A stretch of DNA of 24,689 nucleotides from a virus. Of the stretch, positions 695-24,689 are shown one piece after another. The notes beneath the pieces were generated by a model. That model worked only from the letters and a program-made list of their open reading frames with translations, made no database searches and was not told the origin of the DNA. Each line of letters starts with the position of its first letter. Positions within the stretch are counted from its first letter, which is position 1. The translations under genes and the position numbers were made by a program. Location: UHGV virus genome UHGV-1601690. One strand, written 5' to 3'.

Positions 695-3600
695 TTATGC
701 GTATTGTTGGATGACGGCCAGAACGTCCGCCACGTTGTGTTTTGTCTCGATAATCCACCAGTTGCCCGGGAAATCGCTGTTCTTCGCCTTCGCTGGCAGC
801 CAGCGAGCGCCGAATTTCGCCTTGATTGCGTCTTTCGCACGGAAAAGAACGCCTTTCATGCCTGAGGCTTCCTGAAGCCCAAATACCTCGCCAGCGGCGA
901 ATTTTGGTGCGTACATCATCTTCAGGTCGGCGGTGGATACGCGATAATTCAGACCAAGAGACTGAGCTATGCTGGTGGCATCACCCTGTATTGATGATAA
1001 CTCTTCTTGTTTCTCGTTTCTGGCGGCAATTTCTTCCTCCGTGATGTTGCCAAGGGCCAGGTTTATCCGATCAGCGTCGGCCTGTTTCTCTTCATCGGTG
1101 CGCCCGGCAAGAACCGTGTTAATTCTCTGCAATATCTCCACATGATTCTTGCGCATGCTGAGCAATTCCGGCGTAACCTCGTTAAGATCCACCAGCCCAA
1201 GGATGGCAAGGTCGGAAAACATTGATACCAGGTTGTAGGTCATGCGATAGCTGAGTTGGCCATAGGCTGATGGCAACTGCACCGCATCCATTTGATAGGC
1301 ATCCATAAATTTAGAGCCGTCGTTTACGACATCCGCAATTGCAGGTGTGATTTTCCCTGTGGTGGCGGCCTCCCTGATTGCTGTTACCCACGATTGAGTC
1401 AGTGCGGCGACTGCATGATTCAGATTGGCTTCCCGTTCTGCTGCGATGCGCGCGCTTGCTGCGTCCATTGCCTGCTTGATCTCGGCTTTATTGCTGTAAA
1501 TGCCAATGGTGCCAAACTGTGCTGTGGTGATCTCATAATCTGACGCCCGGAACTCATGGGTACCGAAAATGGCATTGGTGACCTCAAGTTCAGAATCCCC
1601 GTTACGAGTAGCCCCCTGGCTTGTTTTCTCCGGCATTTTTGCGATCGCATCCGCTATTTTCTCCTGAATTGCTTCAGGGGATAGCGTATCTCCGTATGAC
1701 GCGATTACATCGCCATAATTGGAGCCAAACAATTCAACCAGGAATGTTTCTGCCGAACGGATCTGGCGGTTATTCCCTTCCGACATCATACCAAGCACCC
1801 ATTTTGCAATTGACGACTTCAGCGCGCCGTCACGGCGATCCGGGTAAACCGCATGCTTCAGTGGGTCCGTATAGGTACCAACAAAATCAATGCTATAGCC
1901 TGACTCTGTAGTCTGAACGCCGTATGAGTCAGTGATTTTGATCATGCCGCGCTGCTGGAAACGGTAGAAATCGTCACAGGAAATGATGTCGTTAATCCCG
2001 GCGATGGAGACGCCACCACTGATTTTCTGCATAACAGCATCTTCATCGGGAGTTACATCCACCTGTTTATCCAGCGTCTTCACATCCCAGTTACCCGATT
2101 TGGTGCCTTTGAAGGTAAAGATGATCTCCACATCTGCGCGCTGGCTGTCGAAGTCCAGCGACTTAATGCGAACGATATCACCAGCACAATCATAGTATTG
2201 GCCTACACGCCATGAGCGATCGCCGATAACAAGGAACTCACTCGCATGGTTAACCAGGTCAGGATCAACATCCAGAATGCCTTTATTTATTGCATCCTCC
2301 ACCAGCGGGCGCAGGCGTTTGATATCCGTCGCGGCCTTCTGAGTACGGTTCAATAATTTCTCATAGCGGGAGATGGCTTGAGTGATATTAGCCTTGCGCT
2401 GAATGGCGCTTTTCAACGACGCGCGATACTGTGCTAACAACGTACGGTCTGTGTGATGGACGCTACCCCAGCGGGCCTTCCAGTCTGCATTATCAGCTGC
2501 TTTGGCCATTACCGCCTGTTTGAATTTAGCTACCTCGGCGGTGGTCTTTTCAAGTTCCGCTTTACTTCGCTCTAATTCAGCGGTAAGAGCCGCAACATCC
2601 TCGCCAGCTGCATGTTGCGCCTTGATGTAGTTCTGAAGGTCGATAGCGGCCTGTTCTTTCTGGCGGGCGCGTTGCACGGCTTTCGCCTTATCCATTTGAA
2701 CCTGCATCATTGCCAGACGTTCGCCATCATCCTTAGCGGTATACATCTGCATTTCGATCATATCGTTGGCGTCGGCGTTCTCCATTTCTGACTTATCTGA
2801 ACGGAGGATATCGGAGATCCAGCCTGCTTTACGCTTCAGCGTCTTCAGTCGGTATTCATCGAAAGAACCCTTGCCGCAGTAGTAGTGAACGCGAACGCTT
2901 GCACGGTTGGAGCCAACTCGGGCACCGCGACCGTTTCGTTGCGCAATACTGGCTGGAGTCCATGGCAACGTCAGATGATGGATGTCAGTCGTTCCTCGAT
3001 GCAGGTTGATTCCCACCTCTGCCTTTTTGTTGCAGATGATGATCGGAGTCCGGCCCTCCTGGAAGTCGGCTGCAATCTTTTCCAGACCGCCCAACGACAT
3101 TTCATTTTGCTGCGCGATATAGGCGTCATACAGAGCCATTTGCTCGTTGTATTTCGCTATCTGTGCATCTGTTGGTTCATCCGGTAACTCTTTCGGCGGT
3201 TTAACCGCTTTCAGTTTCTTACCGGTTTTACCTGCCTCGGCAACCGTCTGAGCATTCAGTATCCCCACCTTTGAAGGTTCAAGGTTAAGAGCATTGCAGA
3301 TAATGCGCTTGAGCTTCTGGTGCTGCGTTTTTTCATCGGTGAAGATGATTTGCTTACCTTCCGGGAAAAACTCCTTCAGCGTGGCAATCAGCTTCGCGTA
3401 TTTGGGCGTAACGGGGTGAGTTACGGTCTGTTCGTCAATGCCAAACCTGGCCAGGCGCTTATTCACTTCCTGCTCGAACGCTTCCGGAACCTGCAACTGA
3501 ATAAACTCGCCCTTATCTATCAGGGAGTATTGCGATTGCTGCGTGATTGAATCATCACTGTCGTCGTCTTCGCTGGTGGCTTGTTTAGGCAAACTGTCCG

Positions 3601-6600
3601 CCAGCTGCTGCACCGCATCGGCGTACTCCGGCAGGAAACGATAGGTGATCCGGCGATAGTACAGGTCCATGTCAGTACATACGCGGTCCATATCCCTGAT
3701 TATTGAGAAGATCGGACGGGCTTTCTCGTGCTCAATCACGCCGTCTTCATTGACCGAGGTCGTTACGCCATTGTTGGCTTTGGCCGCCGCTTCCGCCTGC
3801 TGACGCAATTCTTCATACGCCGCCAGTTGTTCTTCAGTAAGTGGTGCATCCTGCTGGTGTTCGTCCAGCTCCGGGATCTCCACGGTATCCTTAACGTCTT
3901 CCGCCGTTTTAAGCGTTACCCAGCGATGGAATATACCGCGCAGCGCATCAAGGTTTTCAAAGCCCACCAGCGCCATTTTTTCTTCAACTTCACCGCTAAT
4001 TTTCTGTACCGTTTCCAGCCTGGTCTTGCCGAAGAATTTAACGAAGTCATCAGGACCGTAGATCCCCATGTTCTGCCAGTATTCCTTCGGCAGAACATGA
4101 GAAAGCATGTTGTATGCATCGATCGGGGTGTTAACGACTGGCGTTGCAGTCAGGAGAACCGGCCCGCGCCCACCATTCTTTTTCATCAGGTACGCGTTTT
4201 TAATTGCCATATCTCGCGCCGATTGCGCCACCGCGCTGGTGGGCAGATAGGCCAGTTGTGACGCTTCGCGACCATTTTTATAGCTATTGCGGTAGTTGTG
4301 ACCTTCGTCAGCGATCACACTATCGAAGCCCATATCCTCAAAGTACGGATACTTCTCTGCTTTTTCGGTGCCGGTATCTGAATACTCCGACAATACCCGG
4401 CGACGCGCGGCCTCTTTGCGGTGGGAGTCGGAGTCCATTGCGCTGGCTACGCGTCCAGCGGCAACGAAGTCATAAAGCATATCCTGTGCATGCTCATCTA
4501 CGGTGTCATCACGTAGCGGAATGCGGGCGTATTGTTCTTTGGTAAACACGACTGCACGGTAATTTGAGTGCGGGATCGCGTTCATCCGCGCCGTGATAGT
4601 GGCTTCATCTGCCAGCTTAAGAGCATCGCGCATAACTGGAGTGCCATCAGTACCAAGAACAGGTTTACCGTTCTCATCGAGCACCTGCACCTGGCGAATC
4701 TGATCGCCATCCATCAGCACATCAAGACCGACGAACAGGTAGTTACTGAATGCCTCTTCACTCAGGAATTCTTTTGCTTCGTAATACCAGTTTTCCAGCA
4801 CTGATTTAGGCACTACATACGCAGTACGGGTGGAGCGACCGTTCTCATAGTTGAACGCCTCAAGCGCCAGCGCGGTCGTGGTTTTACCCAGCCCGGTGCC
4901 GAAGCCCAGGATGCCGCGCCCATCTTCGGACAGTCGGCGCACCTCGCTATTCTGGTAATCAAATGGCTGGCGCTTACCGCTTAATCCCTTCAACCCAAGC
5001 GGATCGCCAGAGTGTTCATACGGGATATTGCTATTGAACACATCGTTGTATTTGGCAACCAGCTCATCGTAGCGATCGTGCGTCTTGATCCACTTATTGA
5101 ACTGGTCCTCAAGCAGTGCCATCTGCTCGCGGTAGCCGTTCGCCGTCGCGCTATCTTTGCCACCGATACGCGCACCATTGAGATACTTTTCCAGCTGTGC
5201 CGGGAACCCGGTCGCGTTTTCACCTGATTTACGGTCCCACTCGTAGCGAATCTCACCTGTTTCTTTATCCTTGCGCTGGACGACACCGTATCGGTGCCCG
5301 ACGAACAGACCATCACCACCGTGATAGGTGTCAGAAACCATTTCGTCGCCTTCCAGCTGCACTGACTGCACATAGCGCAGATCCGGATAGCCGTTTTCCT
5401 GCAAAAATTCCAGAATGACGGAACGGTCGAACCAACGGCTATTGAGCTTAAACCGGATATTCTCTGCTGGCGTCTTGATGCGCTTCTCTTCGATAGCTGC
5501 CAGCTGATTAAGGACGTTGTTCTTTACTGGACCGTCGGGGAGTGTGGCGAGGAATTCCTGTTTTGGAGCCACTATCTCGTTAATGTCGCCGCTGGTGGCG
5601 CGGGCGAACGGAACAATCCCGCCATACGGTGAAACCGCAATACCAGGGGTGCTGGCCAATAAATTAAGCAACTCTTCATCACTGGCTGGCAGTTCGCCGG
5701 TAAACGCAAGGCGGAAATCATCGAGCTGGATTGGATCGCGGGTGAGATCGCTATAGAGATAACGCAGGGTGTCCTGATAGCTGGTGGAGTCATAACTTGC
5801 GCTGGAATCATGCGTAACCAGCTTCCCTGTCAGCTCGTCAGAAATAGTGCCATCCAGCTTAATTGCACCACGGAAAGCAAACCAGGCGCGCGCACCGCTC
5901 CCCGACAATTTCGCTATCGGACCGCGACCGGGGTTACCAAAACGGTCAATCTCTGCCTGCAAACGGGATACCAGAGAAAGGCGCTGCTGTTCGATTTGTT
6001 CAGCACTATGCCCGGCGGCCTTCATGTCCTGATATTCAATTAACATCCGGCCAATCATCGCCCCGCGATACAAGCGTTCACGGTATTTTTCAGGCTGGCT
6101 GTTAATCCAGTCCACCAGCTGCACCATATCGTCGCTGATTGATGTGGTGTACTTATCGCGGACATTTGCCATCTGGGTAAATGTCATGCCGAGACGGCCT
6201 TCTGTTGTAGTCAGGTTACGCTGAAGAGCCTCCCAGCTATCCGCGCCATAACTGGCAGCATCGATCTTAAGTTCCTTCCCGGCATCAGCTTCAATCCAGC
6301 GACCACCAGCATATTTTTGCCATACGCCATTAATCAGGCGCATTTCCCCTTCACCAACAACGTCTGCGGTCGGTGACGGTTCAGCCATATCGAGCAAAGA
6401 CCAGTCGATACGGCTTTCGAAACGATGAATCAGCTTCGCTTTAAGAGCCTGGTTATCAATCTGACCGTCGGCACGAACCTCAATACGCCCCTGGAAGCCC
6501 TTTTCCTGGGTGCCATGAACAAACCGGCGGCCGTCCTTTTCAAACCACTTGCCAGAAATAAACGTTGGCCAAAGCACATTTGCCGATTCGAGAGTGCTTT

Positions 6601-7462
6601 CATCCACCAGGGGGATTTTCTCAGCCATCTCTGCCGGATGTTTGCGCATCAGCACCACATCAACAACTGTACTGGTCCCGTTTGCGTCAAAAGTACCGGT
6701 AGGCAAGCGGTGGGCACCAAGAAATTCAGCTTTCCGTGATAGGCGCAGGCGTAACCGCTTCATGTTTGAACCTGAAACAATGGACGGCGGCACAATCACG
6801 CACATGAATCCGCCTGGCTTTATCTTGTCCAGCATGCGGAGCATGAAGTAAGAACCCATGTCCGTTTCTTCTGCGTAAGGCTTATCGATGTTGCGTGTGT
6901 TATCACGACCACCGAACGGAACGTTACCCACAACATGGTCGAATGAATCGTTAGGCGTGCTTACAGCCAGTTGTTCGAACGGAGAAATCTGTACGCTGTC
7001 TTCCGGGTGCAACAGCTGGTTTATACGACCGGAAACACTGCTGATCTCAGTCGCGGTCATCACCGTACCAACCGGTTTTGTCTCATTAAAAACGCCGGTT
7101 CCCGCCGATGGTTCCAGAGTGTTACCTACGTCCGCGCCGTAGAGCTTCATGATCTCCCAGACACCTTCAGCGATCGGCTTTGGTGTGTAATATTCGGAGA
7201 CGGACCCGCCAATGCCGCCTTCACCGGTGTACCCAGCCAGGATCTGGCGCTGTTCATCTGTCAGTGTCGCGCCGTCCACCAGCGAATTAAGCAAATCTAT
7301 CGCCTTCTGATTCGCCTCACGGCGCAGTCGGTCATAGCTTTTGCCTTCCACCTTTTCCACGCCGTATTTAATCGGCGCTCGGTGAGATGTTATTGCCCTA
7401 ATGTATTTCAATATTTCGCTGACACTTGAACAGCGAAACACCCCCATATATAGCTTGTTCAT
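695..7462 (-). CDS. darB: DarB-type giant anti-restriction protein: N-terminal N6-adenine methyltransferase domain fused to an SF2 helicase
   Basis: Single 2255-aa ORF, the length I recall for P1 DarB. ATG at 7460-7462 preceded by AAGGA. Methyltransferase motif I EPSAGTG (about 7090-7120) and motif IV GNVPF (6914-6928). Helicase motif I GFGTGLGKTT (4877-4906), motif II DEGH (4298-4309), plus TATP and QRNGRGAR motifs further on. Confidence 0.9.
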   Translation of the reverse strand: MNKLYMGVFRCSSVSEILKYIRAITSHRAPIKYGVEKVEGKSYDRLRREANQKAIDLLNSLVDGATLTDEQRQILAGYTGEGGIGGSVSEYYTPKPIAEGVWEIMKLYGADVGNTLEPSAGTGVFNETKPVGTVMTATEISSVSGRINQLLHPEDSVQISPFEQLAVSTPNDSFDHVVGNVPFGGRDNTRNIDKPYAEETDMGSYFMLRMLDKIKPGGFMCVIVPPSIVSGSNMKRLRLRLSRKAEFLGAHRLPTGTFDANGTSTVVDVVLMRKHPAEMAEKIPLVDESTLESANVLWPTFISGKWFEKDGRRFVHGTQEKGFQGRIEVRADGQIDNQALKAKLIHRFESRIDWSLLDMAEPSPTADVVGEGEMRLINGVWQKYAGGRWIEADAGKELKIDAASYGADSWEALQRNLTTTEGRLGMTFTQMANVRDKYTTSISDDMVQLVDWINSQPEKYRERLYRGAMIGRMLIEYQDMKAAGHSAEQIEQQRLSLVSRLQAEIDRFGNPGRGPIAKLSGSGARAWFAFRGAIKLDGTISDELTGKLVTHDSSASYDSTSYQDTLRYLYSDLTRDPIQLDDFRLAFTGELPASDEELLNLLASTPGIAVSPYGGIVPFARATSGDINEIVAPKQEFLATLPDGPVKNNVLNQLAAIEEKRIKTPAENIRFKLNSRWFDRSVILEFLQENGYPDLRYVQSVQLEGDEMVSDTYHGGDGLFVGHRYGVVQRKDKETGEIRYEWDRKSGENATGFPAQLEKYLNGARIGGKDSATANGYREQMALLEDQFNKWIKTHDRYDELVAKYNDVFNSNIPYEHSGDPLGLKGLSGKRQPFDYQNSEVRRLSEDGRGILGFGTGLGKTTTALALEAFNYENGRSTRTAYVVPKSVLENWYYEAKEFLSEEAFSNYLFVGLDVLMDGDQIRQVQVLDENGKPVLGTDGTPVMRDALKLADEATITARMNAIPHSNYRAVVFTKEQYARIPLRDDTVDEHAQDMLYDFVAAGRVASAMDSDSHRKEAARRRVLSEYSDTGTEKAEKYPYFEDMGFDSVIADEGHNYRNSYKNGREASQLAYLPTSAVAQSARDMAIKNAYLMKKNGGRGPVLLTATPVVNTPIDAYNMLSHVLPKEYWQNMGIYGPDDFVKFFGKTRLETVQKISGEVEEKMALVGFENLDALRGIFHRWVTLKTAEDVKDTVEIPELDEHQQDAPLTEEQLAAYEELRQQAEAAAKANNGVTTSVNEDGVIEHEKARPIFSIIRDMDRVCTDMDLYYRRITYRFLPEYADAVQQLADSLPKQATSEDDDSDDSITQQSQYSLIDKGEFIQLQVPEAFEQEVNKRLARFGIDEQTVTHPVTPKYAKLIATLKEFFPEGKQIIFTDEKTQHQKLKRIICNALNLEPSKVGILNAQTVAEAGKTGKKLKAVKPPKELPDEPTDAQIAKYNEQMALYDAYIAQQNEMSLGGLEKIAADFQEGRTPIIICNKKAEVGINLHRGTTDIHHLTLPWTPASIAQRNGRGARVGSNRASVRVHYYCGKGSFDEYRLKTLKRKAGWISDILRSDKSEMENADANDMIEMQMYTAKDDGERLAMMQVQMDKAKAVQRARQKEQAAIDLQNYIKAQHAAGEDVAALTAELERSKAELEKTTAEVAKFKQAVMAKAADNADWKARWGSVHHTDRTLLAQYRASLKSAIQRKANITQAISRYEKLLNRTQKAATDIKRLRPLVEDAINKGILDVDPDLVNHASEFLVIGDRSWRVGQYYDCAGDIVRIKSLDFDSQRADVEIIFTFKGTKSGNWDVKTLDKQVDVTPDEDAVMQKISGGVSIAGINDIISCDDFYRFQQRGMIKITDSYGVQTTESGYSIDFVGTYTDPLKHAVYPDRRDGALKSSIAKWVLGMMSEGNNRQIRSAETFLVELFGSNYGDVIASYGDTLSPEAIQEKIADAIAKMPEKTSQGATRNGDSELEVTNAIFGTHEFRASDYEITTAQFGTIGIYSNKAEIKQAMDAASARIAAEREANLNHAVAALTQSWVTAIREAATTGKITPAIADVVNDGSKFMDAYQMDAVQLPSAYGQLSYRMTYNLVSMFSDLAILGLVDLNEVTPELLSMRKNHVEILQRINTVLAGRTDEEKQADADRINLALGNITEEEIAARNEKQEELSSIQGDATSIAQSLGLNYRVSTADLKMMYAPKFAAGEVFGLQEASGMKGVLFRAKDAIKAKFGARWLPAKAKNSDFPGNWWIIETKHNVADVLAVIQQYA

Positions 7463-7473
7463 TGGTAATCCTT

Positions 7474-7490
7474 AACAAGTGACTAGTGTT
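7474..7490. promoter_or_regulatory. Near-palindromic element AACAAGTGACTAGTGTT in the divergent darB/prt intergenic region; candidate late-promoter element
   Basis: The 9-mer AACAAGTGA recurs about 100 nt upstream of lyz (minus strand, 12498-12506). In both places it is followed about 7 nt later by a TANNNT-like hexamer. Confidence 0.3.
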
Positions 7491-7529
7491 AAATTTCCGT
7501 TCAAACACGATGCGAATTATTCTAATTAA

Positions 7530-9260
<1,731 letters not shown>

Positions 9261-10528
9261 ACGGCAAACATTCCCAATTCACAGAGTCCGACCTAAACCA
9301 CATGAAGCGGCTTAGGAATTACAGACTCTCCAAGGGCTAACACTGCCAGCCCGGCAGCTTTTATATTACGGGCCGCGTTAATATCACGATCATGCTCTGC
9401 GCCACATTCCGGGCAGTGCCATTTACGAATATTAAGAGGCATTTTTTGCATGGTGAAGCCGCAACTGCTGCAACGTTTGGAAGAAGGGAAATACTGGTCG
9501 ATAGCGACAATGCTACGTCCACCCCATTCTCCTTTGTACTGGAGTTGGCGTACAAGTTCGCTCCAGCCTGTGTCAGCTATTGCTTTAGACAGCTTCGGGT
9601 TACGGATCATGTTTTTCACTTTAAGGGATTCAACGCAAACAACTTGGTTTTCGTTAATCAGTTTGCGGGACAACTTATGCAGGTTATCCATCCGACAATC
9701 GACTATTCTCGCGTGGAGGCGGGCAACCTTTAAACGTGCTTTGGCGCGGTTCTTTGAGCCTTTTTGTTTCTTGCTCAATCTGCGCTGTAACACTGCTAAT
9801 CGCTTCGCGTATTTAGCGTTGTGTCGAGGATTGCCAGTTTTAAAACCGGTATCGGTGACGAACAAATCTTTTAAACCAATATCAATGCCGACCGTGGAAA
9901 CGGTGATCGGCAGTGATACAGGCTCAAACTCGCAGAGACAGGATACAAAATATCGTCCGGCAGCATCCCTGGTGATAGTGACAGTGGATGGAGCAGACGG
10001 CAACGGACGGCTCCAGCGAACATCTAACGGCTCTTTGCCATGTACAGCTTGCCGTCACGGTATTTAAATGCGCTGGCAGTTAGTTCTGCGGCCTGTTTAT
10101 GCCGCTTGCTCTTAAAAACTGGGTATGCAGCACGCCCGGCGAAAAAGTTAGCAAAAGCCGTTTGTTGGTGGCGCAGAGACTGCTGGAGGGGGACGCAGGA
10201 AACGTCATTCAGCCAGGCGAATTCTGGTTCTTTTTTCAGTGCCGTTAATTTGGCGCTGGCTTGTGCATAGCCGACCCTCTCATGGCGTGCGTAGTACGCA
10301 TCGGTGCGCCAGCGAAGGAGGCTGTTATAGACAAAACGCACACACCCAAAAGTCCGGGCTAATAGCTCGGTTTGTTCGGGAGTTGGATAGAATCGATATT
10401 TATAGGCACGCTTCATGTTCTATATAATACATTGAAACTAATGAGTATATAAATGAATACACGGACGAAAATGTTATCAAAGCCAATATACCAACAGACA
10501 TTAGGTAAGGTAGCTGGAGGGCAATATA
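9261..10528 (-). mobile_element. tnpB-only IS200/IS605-family insertion between prt and pro (ends not determined; coordinates are the surrounding intergenic limits)
   Basis: No Y1 tnpA-sized ORF on either side. Only 32 nt separate the convergent prt and tnpB stops, so the right end must abut or overlap the prt 3' end. Confidence 0.5.
9293..10416 (-). pseudogene. tnpB: tnpB (IS200/IS605-family OrfB, RNA-guided nuclease family), split by a frameshift
   Basis: N-terminal fragment 10024-10416 (MKRAYKYRFYPTPEQTELL...) and C-terminal fragment 9293-10003 (RuvC-like region and CxxC...CxxC zinc finger, KRCSSCG...HCPECG) lie in different frames. The C-terminal frame is open upstream and reads PLDVRWSRPLPSAPSTVT, continuous with the N-terminal fragment if one base is restored near 10027-10033. 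Confidence 0.85.
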
Positions 10529-13188: not shown

Positions 13189-13303
13189 GAAGAGGCAATT
13201 TTATTGCCTCTTCAAAGGTGGCATGAGGGTGCCACCTATATGCGGGCAGTGACATCACTCCCTTCCCGCATATTCTTACCTACCAAAATTAGAATTGGTA
13301 GGT
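13189..13303. repeat. Cluster of four perfect inverted repeats in the porin 3' region
   Basis: GAAGAGGCAAT-TTT-ATTGCCTCTTC (13189-13213); GGTGGCA...TGCCACC (13217-13236); ATATGCGGG...CCCGCATAT (13238-13273); ACCTACCAA...TTGGTAGGT (13278-13303, spanning the porin stop). Confidence 0.6.
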
Positions 13304-14436
13304 CATACCAACAGCAACGATGTTGTCGGTTGCAACCTCAGATGCTTTGGTAAATTCACTTTCATCAATCAGGTTGATCTTGTAGTCAACGAAAGCGGAC
13401 ATATTTTTGTTGAAGTAATAAGTCGCGCCTACGTCGATGTATTCAACTAGATCCTGGTTACCGAACGCACCAATATTTTCACCGCGAGAGTGCAGGTAAG
13501 CGATGGACGGACGCAGGCCGAAATCAAACTGGTATTGAGCAACAGCTTCAAAGTTTTTCGCTTTGTTTGCGATAAAGTCATCACCGAAGACTGTCATATT
13601 CTGAGTTTCAGAATAAGTTGCAGCCAGGTAAATGTTGTTTGCGTCATATTTCAGACCAGTAGCCCATACTTCAGCTGTTTTACCAGAAGCATTCAGAGAG
13701 CTTGCATTAGCATAGGATACCTGTCCATCAGTACGGTCAGATTTTGCATAAGTTGCGCCAATGCCAAATCCTTCATAATCATAAGTAGCTGACAGACCGA
13801 AGCCATCACCATTAGATTCAACTACGTCGCGGCCTTTCCAGTTGTTCACTTTTGCAGCACTATCATTTTTACCCTGATACTGCAAAGCAAAGTTCAGACC
13901 ATCAACCAAGCCGAAGAAATCATTGTTACGATAGGTCGCGACGCCAGTAGCACGCTGGGTCATAAATACATCAGTCTGAGTCCAGGTATCTCCACCAAAC
14001 TCCGGCAGCACGTCAGTCCAAGCGCCAACATCATACGCTACACCGTAGTTGCGACCATAGTCGAGCGAACCATAATCGCCAAAGCGAAGCCCTGCAAACG
14101 CAAGACGAGTTTTGTCTTTATCAGAACCTTCAGTTTCAGTACGGTTACCTTTAAATTCGTACTCCCACTGACCAAAACCGGTTAACTGGTCATTAATCTG
14201 AGTTTCACCTTTGAAACCAAGACGCATGTAGGTCTTGTCGCCATCTTTAAACCCATACGAGCATAAGTTTTATCCCCGTCATCACTAGCTGAAGAAGAGA
14301 AGTAATGCTCTGCATTAACTTTGCCGTACAGATCCAGTTTGTTACCGTCTTTGTTATAGATTTCTGCCGCTTGTGCAGACATTGCCATCAGGACTGATGC
14401 TGCAACCGCAGAAAGTGCCACTGTGATTTTTTTCAT
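13289..14436 (-). pseudogene. OmpC/OmpF/NmpC-family general porin (phage-borne cargo), interrupted by a frameshift
   Basis: Signal peptide plus mature N-terminus ([40 protein letters not shown]...) in ORF 14182-14436; remainder of the barrel to the C-terminal ...VGMTYQF in ORF 13289-14227, in a different frame. Confidence 0.85.
14210..14280. repeat. Diverged 35-nt direct repeat at the porin frameshift
   Basis: Minus-strand copy A gacggggataaaacttatgctcgtatgggtttaaag ([12 protein letters not shown]) is followed directly by copy B gatggcgacaagacctacatgcgtcttggtttcaaa ([12 protein letters not shown]). The copies differ mainly at third codon positions, and the 35-nt offset shifts the frame. Confidence 0.7.
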
Positions 14437-21786: not shown

Positions 21787-22112
21787 TTCCCACCTCCCTT
21801 TTTCACCAAACTTGTAAGAACATTCAGAATGCTATCGATATTCACTCGTTTCATCCCTGAAATCACCTCATGACCGTTATTGCTGGCTATCGTTACCATT
21901 AAGTACGTAATTGATAACTCCCAGCCCTCGTGTTGCCCCAATAGGTACGCCACCGCGCCAGCTGTCACTGCAACAAAGATCTCCGTAACCAATCCCAACA
22001 AATTGCCAGACTGGCGACCATCTCGGACATCCATCAGGAACGTGCCTATCCCACCAATTACTGAAAGCAGGAGCGCAATAGCAACTGGAGCTAATTCCTG
22101 TGTGTCAAGCAC
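21783..22112 (-). CDS. lydA: LydA-like holin
   Basis: 109-aa ORF, GTG start preceded by GGAGGG. Two to three hydrophobic helices (LAPVAIALLLSVIGGIGTFLM; LLGLVTEIFVAVTAGAVAYLLG) and a basic C-terminus. Confidence 0.7.
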   Translation of the reverse strand: MLDTQELAPVAIALLLSVIGGIGTFLMDVRDGRQSGNLLGLVTEIFVAVTAGAVAYLLGQHEGWELSITYLMVTIASNNGHEVISGMKRVNIDSILNVLTSLVKKGGGK

Positions 22113-22181
22113 AAGTTCCCTCCTACGTTGTCAGGAGGTAATGGTATGCAAAGTAACTTCTCAACCGGTCATGTTGCTTGA

Positions 22182-22213
22182 CATCCTCCACGTCCTTTAG
22201 AGCGTGGAGGATG
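22182..22213. repeat. Perfect 11-bp-stem hairpin adjacent to the start of the intron-like region
   Basis: CATCCTCCACG - TCCTTTAGAG - CGTGGAGGATG; ends at 22213, and GTGCG begins at 22215. Confidence 0.75.
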
Positions 22214-22214
22214 T

Positions 22215-23060
22215 GTGCGCCCAGCATGGGCGCGATCTTGGAGGTGAAAGCCCTCCCGCGAGCTGACCACAGCGAGCGAAATGAAGTGCAACTGCGTGAG
22301 GGCGACCGGGCGTGGGGAGGAAGCACGGAATGAACCCGTGAGCCGATGAACGAGAATCGGATATGAGGCGCGATGGAGCAAGGCGAGCAGGCACATCACT
22401 GCGAAGCTTTCGTGGTCAAGTCGAAGTCGCGCAGATCCGACGGTTGTGCGGGGAAGGATCGCGTTCTTACCTGGGGAGTTCTCGCCTCATGCCTGAAAGG
22501 GCAACGTCGTAAGACGGAGCGAGAAGTCAGCAGAGGCCGTTGTAGTCAGGACTCCGACGAAGGGCCGAACGAGAAGGAAAGCCAGAAGATATGACTCTTG
22601 ACAGGACATTGCGTCAGAAGCCGGGGAAGCCCGGTACGGACCCGCATGCCGGGTGGTGTGGCAGGGGCGCAGCCCTTGTGCTCCCCCCTATGCCGATCAA
22701 GCAGAACATTGTGCTGGGCCTCTGACGCAGCTCCTTGATGGTCTTGGCATCGTGCTTAAGTGGATTGGTGTCGTCCCTGATAGGATCATGGAGGCAGAAT
22801 GAAACTCAAAAATCCGGGATAGCACGCAAAACAGGCTGCACAAAAAGCGCAGGTTGCGTAGGAGTGAAATCCCGCTCCCAAAAAATGGTGCAGAAGTTGC
22901 GGCAGTGGTCATCCGACGCACTGGAAAATAACAAACCCGCCGTGACCAGAATCGGAGGCCTGAGGGAGTGACCGAAAAACCGGACAACCCAGGCAGCAAA
23001 TACCCGCTGGATGAGGCATGGTTCCGGCAGATAATACCGAAAACCGCCAGACACACTGGA
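22215..23060 (+). ncRNA. Candidate 5' fragment of a group II intron (domains I-III and start of IV), truncated
   Basis: Starts GTGCGCCCAGCATGGGCGCG (compare the remembered Ll.LtrB 5' end GUGCGCCCAGAUAGGG). About 850 nt that look GC-rich by eye, with stops in all frames and many short helices; ends abruptly where AT-rich DNA begins near 23060. No reverse-transcriptase ORF or domain V present. Confidence 0.4.
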
Positions 23061-23117
23061 TAATCAGTAGAAATAATCCATTAAAGTTATTATAATAATT
23101 GGTCACATTATTATATT

Positions 23118-23681
23118 ATGCTGAACAATAGAAATATGACTATTAATGAACTTAAAGACTGTATTCACTATGAAGTAATTGGTAGCGAGCGTCCTTTCTC
23201 TTGGCGAAAAGCAATTGTTCGCGCAATAAAACATAGAAGAGTTCGTTATTTATTTTGGTGGCGCATATCAAAATATCTTTTTGATAAAGGCGGATACAGG
23301 CGAAAGGTTGCAGGGAAAATAGAACGCTTCATTCTTGACAAATACAATGTAACCGTTCCCTTAACGGTAAATATAGGGAAAGGGTTTGACATATCTTATC
23401 TCAATGGCGTTGTTATCGCTCACAAAGTCACAATCGGTGAAAATTGTTCAATTAAGCCCGGAGTAACTATTGGACTTCGCGGGGAATTTAATGACATGGA
23501 TATTGTTATAGGAGATAATGTGACCATTGGTTGTAATGCCACCATTCTTGGTGGCAAAGTGCGTATAGGAAACAATGTCACAATAGGTGCTCATGCATTG
23601 GTATTGCATGATATTCCTGATGATTCAACATTCATCACTAAATTTCAGTCTGAAGTTATCTGCTCGTCCTCCCGCACATAA
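23118..23681 (+). CDS. Hexapeptide-repeat (left-handed beta-helix) acetyltransferase, probable polysaccharide O-acetyltransferase; AT-rich cargo
   Basis: 187-aa ORF with consecutive hexapeptide repeats ([24 protein letters not shown]...[35 protein letters not shown]). AT-rich by eye, preceded by an AT-rich promoter-like stretch containing TATAAT. Start may be the second ATG at 23136. The 3' end overlaps the tfa 3' end convergently. Confidence 0.8.
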
Positions 23682-24262
23682 CCCTGATTCATCAGCTCTG
23701 GCCATACGATATCCGGAGCTGTACTGGTATCAATTCGACTCACTAATACTCTGTATTTTCTCCAGGAGTCCAGTTGTGAATTTTCCTCGTTTGTTGCTAT
23801 TTCAAGATTAACTGCGTCCTGCAGAATTGCGATGTTATCTGTTGCCTCCTGGATCAACCTTGCCTTTTTCTCTTCCGCTTCCCGTATCCGAAACAGTTTT
23901 TCTGCTTCCTCATCCTTCACCCAGGATACGCCGTCCCACTTCTGATACTCCCCTGCTGGCGACAACCAGGTGACATTCTCTGGTAGCGGTCCGGGTTCAG
24001 AAATAAACAACGCGTCCCCCGATGCCACCTCATAGACCGTTTTACCACGATGGTCTTCAACAATATTCCACGATTCATTTTCACTGTTGAAAACTGCCAC
24101 AAAGCCAGTAGGAATTTCCGGTGGGGCGATATCTGTAGAATTAGCTGGCAGCCCTGTATGAGGTGGAATATATGCGTCATCTTCACCAATAAACTCATTA
24201 GTTCCGGCCAGCAGGTTATAAATTTTTACTGTACGTGATTGTTCACTCATTCTGAATGCCAT
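23645..24262 (-). CDS. Tail fibre assembly chaperone (Tfa / P1 U-like)
   Basis: 205-aa ORF with a Tfa-type C-terminal region (DIVWPEL...). Its ATG overlaps the tail-fibre stop (TAATG). The last few codons run into the AT-rich cassette. Confidence 0.85.
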
Positions 24263-24689
24263 TATGCAAGCCTCACAATATAATTAAATGCGATGTTTTT
24301 AACGGTGTTTTCCGCGTTACCAGCAGCATTAACGGTGATGGTATGTCCATGTGAACCAATCGCAACAGAGTGCGTATGAGCGCCAATACCAACTGTATGT
24401 GCATGCGCCCCTGCACTTGCAGCAGTGCCTGATACTGAGTGGGTGTGTGCACCAGAAGAAGGCACTGTTCCATTCCCCACGACCGTGCCACTTGATGAAC
24501 CATCAAGCCAGTCGAAATTCATACCTCCACTGTTTGGTCTCCTTAATGGAACGGTATGAGTATGTGCGCCAGCACTATTTGCAGTACCAGATACATTGTG
24601 GGTATGTGCACCTGTGTTATTCGTTGGTTTAGTACCGTAATCAAACGACGATGTGGTTTTCGTCCCCAAATCCGTACTGGATGCGCTGG
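24262..24689 (-). CDS. Tail fibre protein, C-terminal receptor-binding part (5' end beyond the window)
   Basis: Frame is open to the window edge. Repeated GAHTH(S/T)V(S/P) motifs ([21 protein letters not shown]...[21 protein letters not shown]) are typical of Mu S / P1 S / lambdoid side tail-fibre C-termini. Confidence 0.8.

Follow-up and report, generated by a model that had tools for sequence, protein, structure and literature searches.

We analyzed a 24,689-nucleotide stretch of the virus genome UHGV-1601690 (hereafter the window), which is part of a P1/P7-like phage-plasmid of Escherichia coli, and within it a hexapeptide-repeat, acetyltransferase-like gene (23136-23681, + strand, 181 aa) that lies tail-to-tail with the tail-fibre assembly gene tfa. 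Comparison of loci ties this gene, both physically and in its evolution, to the receptor-recognition module in at least 5 phage backbones, and in the clade to which the window belongs a tyrosine stands where the rest of the family has an invariant, presumed catalytic histidine. Our leading reading, which we hold tentatively, is that the protein would act in the lysogen as a cytoplasmic modifier of an envelope glycan, hiding the receptor of the fibres encoded by the same block. Phage-borne surface-glycan acetyltransferases are already well known as lysogenic-conversion cargo, and the present member is uncharacterized; as far as we found, what is new is the tyrosine-for-histidine active site and the close linkage of the gene, in phages of several types, to Tfa and the fibre tip, with which it co-diverges.

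Across very different phages, the gene and tfa run tail-to-tail, their stop codons -36 to +44 nt apart. This convergent arrangement was identified in the P1-like window, in a lambdoid prophage of enterotoxigenic E. coli (ETEC) H10407 (gene order J-lom-stf-tfa), in a 47-kb phage-plasmid with a P2-type baseplate, in Hafnia phage yong2, in Citrobacter phage phiNP, and in the P1-like phage JL22, where the gene lies within the cin-invertible segment; in a degraded P2-like prophage, it sits between fibre-gene remains and the tail-sheath operon. A convergent Tfa adjoins most copies in the 80 viral contigs and the examined loci taken together. When the phage-borne copies were clustered at 60% identity, 9 of the 18 clusters were convergent with Tfa and 2 or 3 with a tail-fibre gene, 1 lay beside minor-tail/spike genes, and 2 were cut by contig ends. 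Further, identity declines in parallel for the gene product, Tfa, and the fibre tip (last 300 residues) from one comparison to the next, at 96/98/94%, 90/85/86-91%, 53/58/74%, and 40/49/30%, respectively, a pattern of co-inheritance of the 3-gene block against a changing phage backbone and a changing remainder of the fibre. In JL22 (1773-9140), cin and the invertible segment are intact and the distant homologue, sacF, is located between U' and tfa, so that its orientation flips with the tail-fibre switch.

The organization of the window points to the same unit. Homology to P1 (98.4%) covers darA-hdf-lydB-lydA and the late promoter region and ends at 22179, the 3' end of P1 lydC; therefore, lydC, cin, cixL, Sv', and U' of P1 are missing in the window. 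In P1, the position of the acetyltransferase-like gene is taken by lydC and cin together with the Sv'/U' half of the C-segment, which bears out the preliminary description of this DNA, where the gene was placed at the position of the inverted tail-fibre copies of P1. No P1 homology was found in the block from 23048 to 24689, which comprises the candidate promoter, the acetyltransferase-like gene, tfa, and the tail-fibre tip and continues past the right end of the window, and Escherichia phage vB_EcoM-613R2 matches this block at 95.2% identity across 1642 nt. Copies of the block are also found in chromosomal prophages and in the 47-kb phage-plasmid. The acetyltransferase-like gene, tfa, and the fibre tip were imported together as this single block. 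The arrangement is shared with close relatives of the window, with 100% identity across 22100-24300 to several IncY phage-plasmids and 99.9% to pHYEC7-mcr1. No cix-like inverted repeats were found around the gene beyond a single 23-nt pair, 83% complementary, that joins the -10 region of the candidate promoter (23089-23111) to a segment within the gene (23515-23537) and is probably due to chance.

The open reading frame (ORF) from the first ATG spans 23118-23681 (+ strand, 187 aa), and the gene had originally been given that start. We place the conserved start at ATG 23136 because it is the one used in RefSeq WP_032163794 and the 23118 ATG is absent from the H10407-type variant. GC content is 0.335-0.41 across 23100-23700, compared with approximately 0.5 in the flanks. 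A consensus scan identified a candidate sigma-70-type promoter upstream (23068-23096, + strand), with a -35 hexamer TAGAAA at 23068, a 17-nt spacer, and a -10 hexamer TATAAT at 23091-23096, matching the consensus at 10 of 12 positions. The segment that variants A, B, and C conserve includes both hexamers, and directly upstream of the -35 hexamer their alignment breaks off. Of the AT-rich promoter proposed earlier as the gene's own, the AT-richness and a conserved sigma-70-like motif are therefore retained, but a motif match is not proof of activity. The gene is oriented against the late tail-fibre operon, no terminator-like site was found on the + strand after it, and it may be an independently transcribed cargo gene. 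Between 3 E. coli variants of the tyrosine clade, the ratio of nonsynonymous to synonymous divergence (dN/dS) was 0.05-0.11 at dS 0.25-0.7, values indicating a real gene under strong purifying selection; selection of this strength implies that the tyrosine clade is not decaying and that the protein is functional. The gene was present in 277 copies in 245 of 5426 complete E. coli genomes (~4.5%), with 2 or 3 copies per genome in some E. coli, including some ETEC strains, and it is interrupted by the insertion sequence IS1 in 2 genomes (H75 and H84).

Membership in the hexapeptide-repeat superfamily is clear from the Pfam Hexapep profile (PF00132; 51.7 bits against a cut-off of 27, E = 5e-14), and residues 5-186 match positions 2-184 of the 185 in PHROG 2154, a family of unknown function, at E = 7.5e-78, a full-length match. 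The family first suggested for the gene holds, and the left-handed beta-helix acetyltransferase fold suggested with it is probably right. The suggestion that it might belong to a NeuO, WcaB, or CysE subfamily did not survive, as the scores lie far below the cut-offs that these families set for themselves. The best NCBIfam match was EpsC (NF041874; 81.1 bits against a cut-off of 150, covering 141 of 168 profile positions), followed by CysE (72.1 bits against 210.65 for TIGR01172 and 46.1 against 397 for NF008349), WcaB (62.4 bits against 194.65 for TIGR04016 and 196 for NF007564), and Vat, MAT, and GAT (22-33 bits against 300-475). By sequence, the nearest solved structures in the PDB are serine acetyltransferases (SATs; 1e-13). 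An AlphaFold2 monomer model built from a 50-sequence alignment had a mean pLDDT of 73.5, with the N-terminal helices above 90, the repeat region at 56-73, and the C-terminus below 50; in a Foldseek search of the PDB, the best matches of this model, with its poor beta-helix, were again SATs but not significant (E = 0.016, TM 0.37). No transmembrane segment was found (maximum Kyte-Doolittle hydropathy 1.04).

RefSeq and GenBank annotate the protein as a serine acetyltransferase. Hundreds of records carry the gene, everywhere under that name, and two papers mention it, neither assigning it a function. We aligned it with CysE in 3 HMMER alignments and in MAFFT alignments that included E. coli CysE and WcaB, and compared the residues that we take to form the CysE catalytic pair (Asp143-His158) and to bind serine (Asp157, Arg192, and His193; E. 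coli numbering). All 5 are replaced in the window protein: Asp143 by Thr, His158 by Tyr, Asp157 by Ser, Arg192 by Met, and His193 by Asp. Because neither the catalytic pair nor the serine-binding residues are conserved, the label is a misannotation. A genuine CysE boosting cysteine synthesis, to which the database annotation and the SAT matches in the PDB would point, is effectively refuted by these replacements, by the scores far below the TIGR01172 and NF008349 cut-offs, and by its size, 181 aa compared with 273 for CysE, since its N-terminal domain is shorter and the C-terminal tail is missing; what the protein shares with CysE is the predicted architecture of a helical domain followed by a beta-helix.

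An unexpected residue is Tyr94 (187-aa numbering), encoded by TAT at 23397-23399 (+ strand) at the site of the family's invariant, presumed catalytic histidine; this tyrosine aligns with His158 of CysE and the His-His of WcaB. In the 50-sequence family alignment, position 94 is Tyr in 9/9 members of the window's clade and His in all 41 others. The tyrosine clade reaches down to 52% identity and includes Hafnia phage yong2. Among His-type members, 29 columns are conserved in at least 80%; the clade keeps 25 of these, and just two of its changes are radical, His94 to Tyr and Gln114 to Pro. A catalytic histidine is reported to be shared by all crystallized left-handed beta-helix transferases (PMC3046976), and in the window protein tyrosine stands in its place.

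These replacements raise the main alternative, that the tyrosine clade has lost canonical O-acetyl transfer and either works as a pseudoenzyme, binding a glycan intermediate, acetyl-CoA, or a host protein, or performs other chemistry such as N-acylation of an amino sugar, for which a general base is not required, while still being tied to the tail-fibre module. The complete split at position 94 and the strong selection, which rules against decay, both speak for it. QdtC and WlbB, two N-acetyltransferases acting on sugars, need no catalytic base. On the other side, the scaffold residues of the beta-helix coils, which line the CoA groove in relatives, are all kept, and the tyrosine could conceivably serve as a base itself. 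We regard this alternative as possible but doubtful; at the same modest level of belief, the tyrosine clade may represent a new catalytic solution among hexapeptide acyltransferases, or a pseudoenzyme through which the phage's receptor is masked because a glycan intermediate is bound or diverted and not acetylated.

The envelope-glycan reading draws on the genomic context of the cellular relatives. All 4 that were examined (29-35% identity) lie in Wzy-dependent polysaccharide clusters, and 3 of them adjoin Wzy_C or Wzx/Wzy genes. In Pseudomonas luteola (P0068), the relative overlaps the end of a Wzy_C gene, with GT4, Capsule_synth, and ABC-transporter genes nearby; a second (P0071) stands in the order GT4-VanZ-gene-Wzx-Wzy-Wza, a third (P0113) between Wzy_C and GT4, and that of Geobacter (P0103) beside GT4 genes and a UDP-glucose dehydrogenase. 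The preliminary description had named, as what would count against its proposal of surface-polysaccharide modification, closest homologues that are housekeeping enzymes with no such link; the closest cellular relatives are associated with Wzy-dependent clusters and not with cysteine synthesis, so that this objection falls away. In enterobacteria, 2 His-type relatives (Pantoea and Citrobacter amalonaticus) are chromosomal orphans, an E. coli His-type relative lies at the end of a P2-like prophage, and in ESSI2-type prophages a homologue adjoins int. A faint hint toward the lipopolysaccharide (LPS) core came from a phage contig (L082, 2365-4157) whose homologue is convergent with an ORF weakly similar to the core heptosyltransferase RfaQ/GT9, but we set it aside as too weak to serve as evidence (E = 1.9e-4, 20 bits against 467, no PDB match).

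We infer the trimeric state of the protein, its expression in the lysogen, its substrate, and its effect on adsorption along the following lines. Judged by its sequence, the protein would be a soluble, cytoplasmic, and probably trimeric member of the left-handed beta-helix acyltransferase superfamily, and it may represent the phage branch (PHROG 2154) of a family that acetylates repeat units in surface-polysaccharide clusters. Because it has its own sigma-70-type promoter candidate and opposes the late tail-fibre operon, the lysogen is the most likely setting of its expression, and not the time when the virion genes are on. The protein would most likely act on a sugar in a glycan of the envelope (an LPS core, O-antigen, or some other polysaccharide) while this is still on the cytoplasmic face, and the surface of the lysogen would then cease to present the structure recognized by the fibres of the same module. 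The outcome would be lysogenic conversion that gives superinfection exclusion and possibly a change of serotype.

Known systems supply precedents for parts of this scheme, in which the window protein would plausibly play a NeuO-like part. NeuO, the polysialic-acid O-acetyltransferase of prophage CUS-3 in E. coli K1, which the preliminary description had cited as a model, is likewise a prophage-borne, soluble, left-handed beta-helix protein encoded by a cargo gene outside the virion operons, and it acetylates the phage receptor polysaccharide, reducing killing by K1 phages (PMC3046976, PMC13001214). It differs in being MAT/GAT/NodL-like, whereas the window protein is SAT/WcaB/EpsC-like with an N-terminal helical domain, and in having both the catalytic histidine and a heptanucleotide repeat. 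In the window, tyrosine takes the place of the histidine, and a search for a phase-variation repeat with TRF returned only a 2-copy 10-mer within the gene and no 5' heptanucleotide repeat. WcaB (colanic acid) and the EpsC-type exopolysaccharide acetyltransferases are the best-scoring curated families and have the same layout, with beta-helix coils after a short helical N-domain, and cellular relatives of the phage protein lie in comparable Wzy-dependent clusters; WcaB, however, keeps His-His at the active-site position, and the window gene resides in a phage and not in a polysaccharide cluster. Two other counterparts, sacF of JL22 and sat of phiNP, belong to the same protein family (36-43% identity) and take the same tail-to-tail position with tfa, but both are of the His type, and JL22 keeps cin and the invertible segment, whereas cin and Sv'/U' are gone in the window. 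In Klebsiella, prophage acetyltransferases are associated with capsule loci (PMC13123978).

The architecture of a separately transcribed gene beside an adsorption gene also has parallels, as receptor-disabling genes lie near the receptor-binding gene in gtrABC of P22 (beside the tailspike gene 9), llp of T5 (beside pb5), and cor of phi80 and N15. These encode membrane glycosyltransferases or lipoproteins with demonstrated phenotypes, unlike the window protein, a predicted cytoplasmic beta-helix.

Several points weigh against the envelope-glycan reading. The gene falls below the cut-off of every curated acetyltransferase family, and in the structural model the beta-helix part is poorly predicted and the fold search not significant. 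The invariant histidine is a tyrosine and the same position is the catalytic base in CysE, so that, with Gln114 also replaced, the residue comparison puts the canonical O-acetyl transfer mechanism in doubt. That the gene is linked to Tfa and the fibre tip could come from the shared ancestry of a single block and not from selection for coupling. Lambda-type Stf fibres are known to use the protein OmpC, and an acetyltransferase of the cytoplasm could not modify it. With up to 3 copies per genome, carriage does not obviously prevent the acquisition of another copy, and any exclusion is, given the genomes with 2 or 3, not obviously absolute. A search of the literature for a characterized member found no measured activity or phenotype for the phage family; the authors of the JL22 study state that it is unknown why the gene is present (PMC9603915), and the phiNP copy is listed merely as "fitness" cargo (PMC6456863).

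That last listing, for the copy in C. rodentium phiNP, would suit a second alternative, in which a change of surface polysaccharide benefits the bacterial host only, through antigenicity, serum or immune evasion, or biofilm, adsorption of the gene's own phage type is unaffected, and the side of tfa is just a permissive site for cargo. It draws on the same cellular relatives in polysaccharide clusters and on the fibre-operon end being a common cargo site, with the P2-like prophage copy between fibre genes and the tail-sheath operon and the ESSI2-type copy beside int. Co-divergence with Tfa and the tip across backbones and a tail-to-tail spacing of -36 to +44 nt in most clusters are tighter than expected of a generic cargo slot, and we consider this alternative unlikely. 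Acetylation of a small molecule (a xenobiotic or antibiotic, in a Vat- or CatB-like manner) or an intracellular role in anti-phage defence or counter-defence is less probable still: there are weak matches to Vat streptogramin acetyltransferases (E ~1e-5), and P2-like phages are known to have defence hot-spots beside their tail-fibre genes, but the Vat, MAT, and GAT scores lie far below their cut-offs, no PADLOC-DB family was matched at E up to 0.01, and the helical domain at the N-terminus resembles that of SAT/WcaB proteins.

At its 3' end, the gene overlaps tfa (23645-24262, - strand, 205 aa), which is of the lambda Tfa type (Caudo_TAP, PF02413; E = 2.8e-39, 134.7 bits against a cut-off of 22.1) and whose product is 77% identical to lambda Tfa. 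The tfa start codon abuts the stop of the tail-fibre gene at 24262. The 3' end of that gene (24262-24689, - strand; Stf/S type with His-rich repeats) was recognized by a Phage_fiber repeat (E = 2.6e-9) and DNA homology to lambda stf and extends past the window; the full gene measures 4020 nt in pHYEC7-mcr1. From the ORF coordinates, the tail-to-tail overlap of the 2 coding regions, earlier estimated at about 37 nt, is exactly 37 nt (23645-23681). Seven other Tfa/U proteins (from lambda, JL22, phiNP, and yong2, and including P1 U and U') stop 4-6 residues past an invariant Trp-Pro, whereas the Tfa of the window and that of 613R2 run on through a stretch of 19 residues (letters not shown) instead of stopping after Trp-Pro. 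The resulting C-terminal extension, 13-15 residues long, is non-homologous and is absent in lambda Tfa, P1 U and U', JL22, phiNP, and yong2, which settles the comparison with P1 U that the preliminary description had called for.

The last 12 tfa codons are antisense of the 3' end of the acetyltransferase-like gene. The earlier proposal that these codons derive from an insert holds for the codons themselves but not for the insert, as the gene is not a separate insertion beside a P1 tfa. In the non-overlapping variant of ETEC H10407, tfa ends in WPEL-TGA with its stop 10 nt from the acetyltransferase stop, and comparison of the variants indicates that a small indel in the ancestor of the window's variant removed the tfa TGA and extended tfa into the other gene. 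The C-terminus of the acetyltransferase-like protein is equally long in overlapping and non-overlapping variants; therefore, tfa was extended into the acetyltransferase-like gene and not the reverse, and we rejected the idea that the overlap had reshaped the acetyltransferase. The 37-nt overlap is regarded as a tolerated accident, a by-product of the lost tfa stop, and not a designed feature.

To the left of the imported block, the gap to the P1 backbone, where P1 has lydC and cin, is filled by a truncated group II intron (22214-23047, + strand) that retains 5' domains only, identified by Rfam RF02001 (22296-22466, 96.9 bits) and RF01998 (22484-22565, 41.6 bits). The remnant opens with GTGCG at 22214 and is preceded by a short GC-rich hairpin at about 22186-22211; domain V/VI, a reverse-transcriptase ORF, and any long ORF were not found in it. 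A piece of approximately 70 nt (22629-22698) matches plasmids of Sinorhizobium, Ralstonia, Burkholderia, and Vibrio at 85-95% and is presumably a conserved intron element. The entire 880-nt stretch 22180-23047 is known only in approximately 35 P1-like plasmids.

Farther from the block, we identified an OmpC/NmpC-type porin gene (13289-14436, - strand; Porin_1, E = 1e-135) with 98% identity to nmpC of phage P7. Its frame is broken near 14230-14270 by an apparent short duplication, so that the N-terminus with its signal peptide is read in another frame than the remainder. An IS200/IS605-type tnpB (9293-10416, - strand; OrfB_IS605 and a Cas12f-like TNB domain) is divided into 2 ORFs (10024-10416 and 9293-10003) and is probably frameshifted. 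The largest of these features, an ORF of 2255 aa (695-7462, - strand), may be darB, which we presume from its position in a P1-like genome.

The gene occurs on P1/P7-like phage-plasmids that spread mcr-1 and extended-spectrum beta-lactamase genes, such as pHYEC7-mcr1. Its tyrosine-for-histidine site also makes it well suited to testing how left-handed beta-helix transferases catalyze their reaction. If the envelope-glycan reading is true, the block of fibre tip, Tfa, and acetyltransferase would be a portable cassette that recognizes a receptor and then hides it, and such a cassette would shape the coexistence of phage-plasmids and prophages in a strain, with a bearing on phage therapy and plasmid epidemiology.

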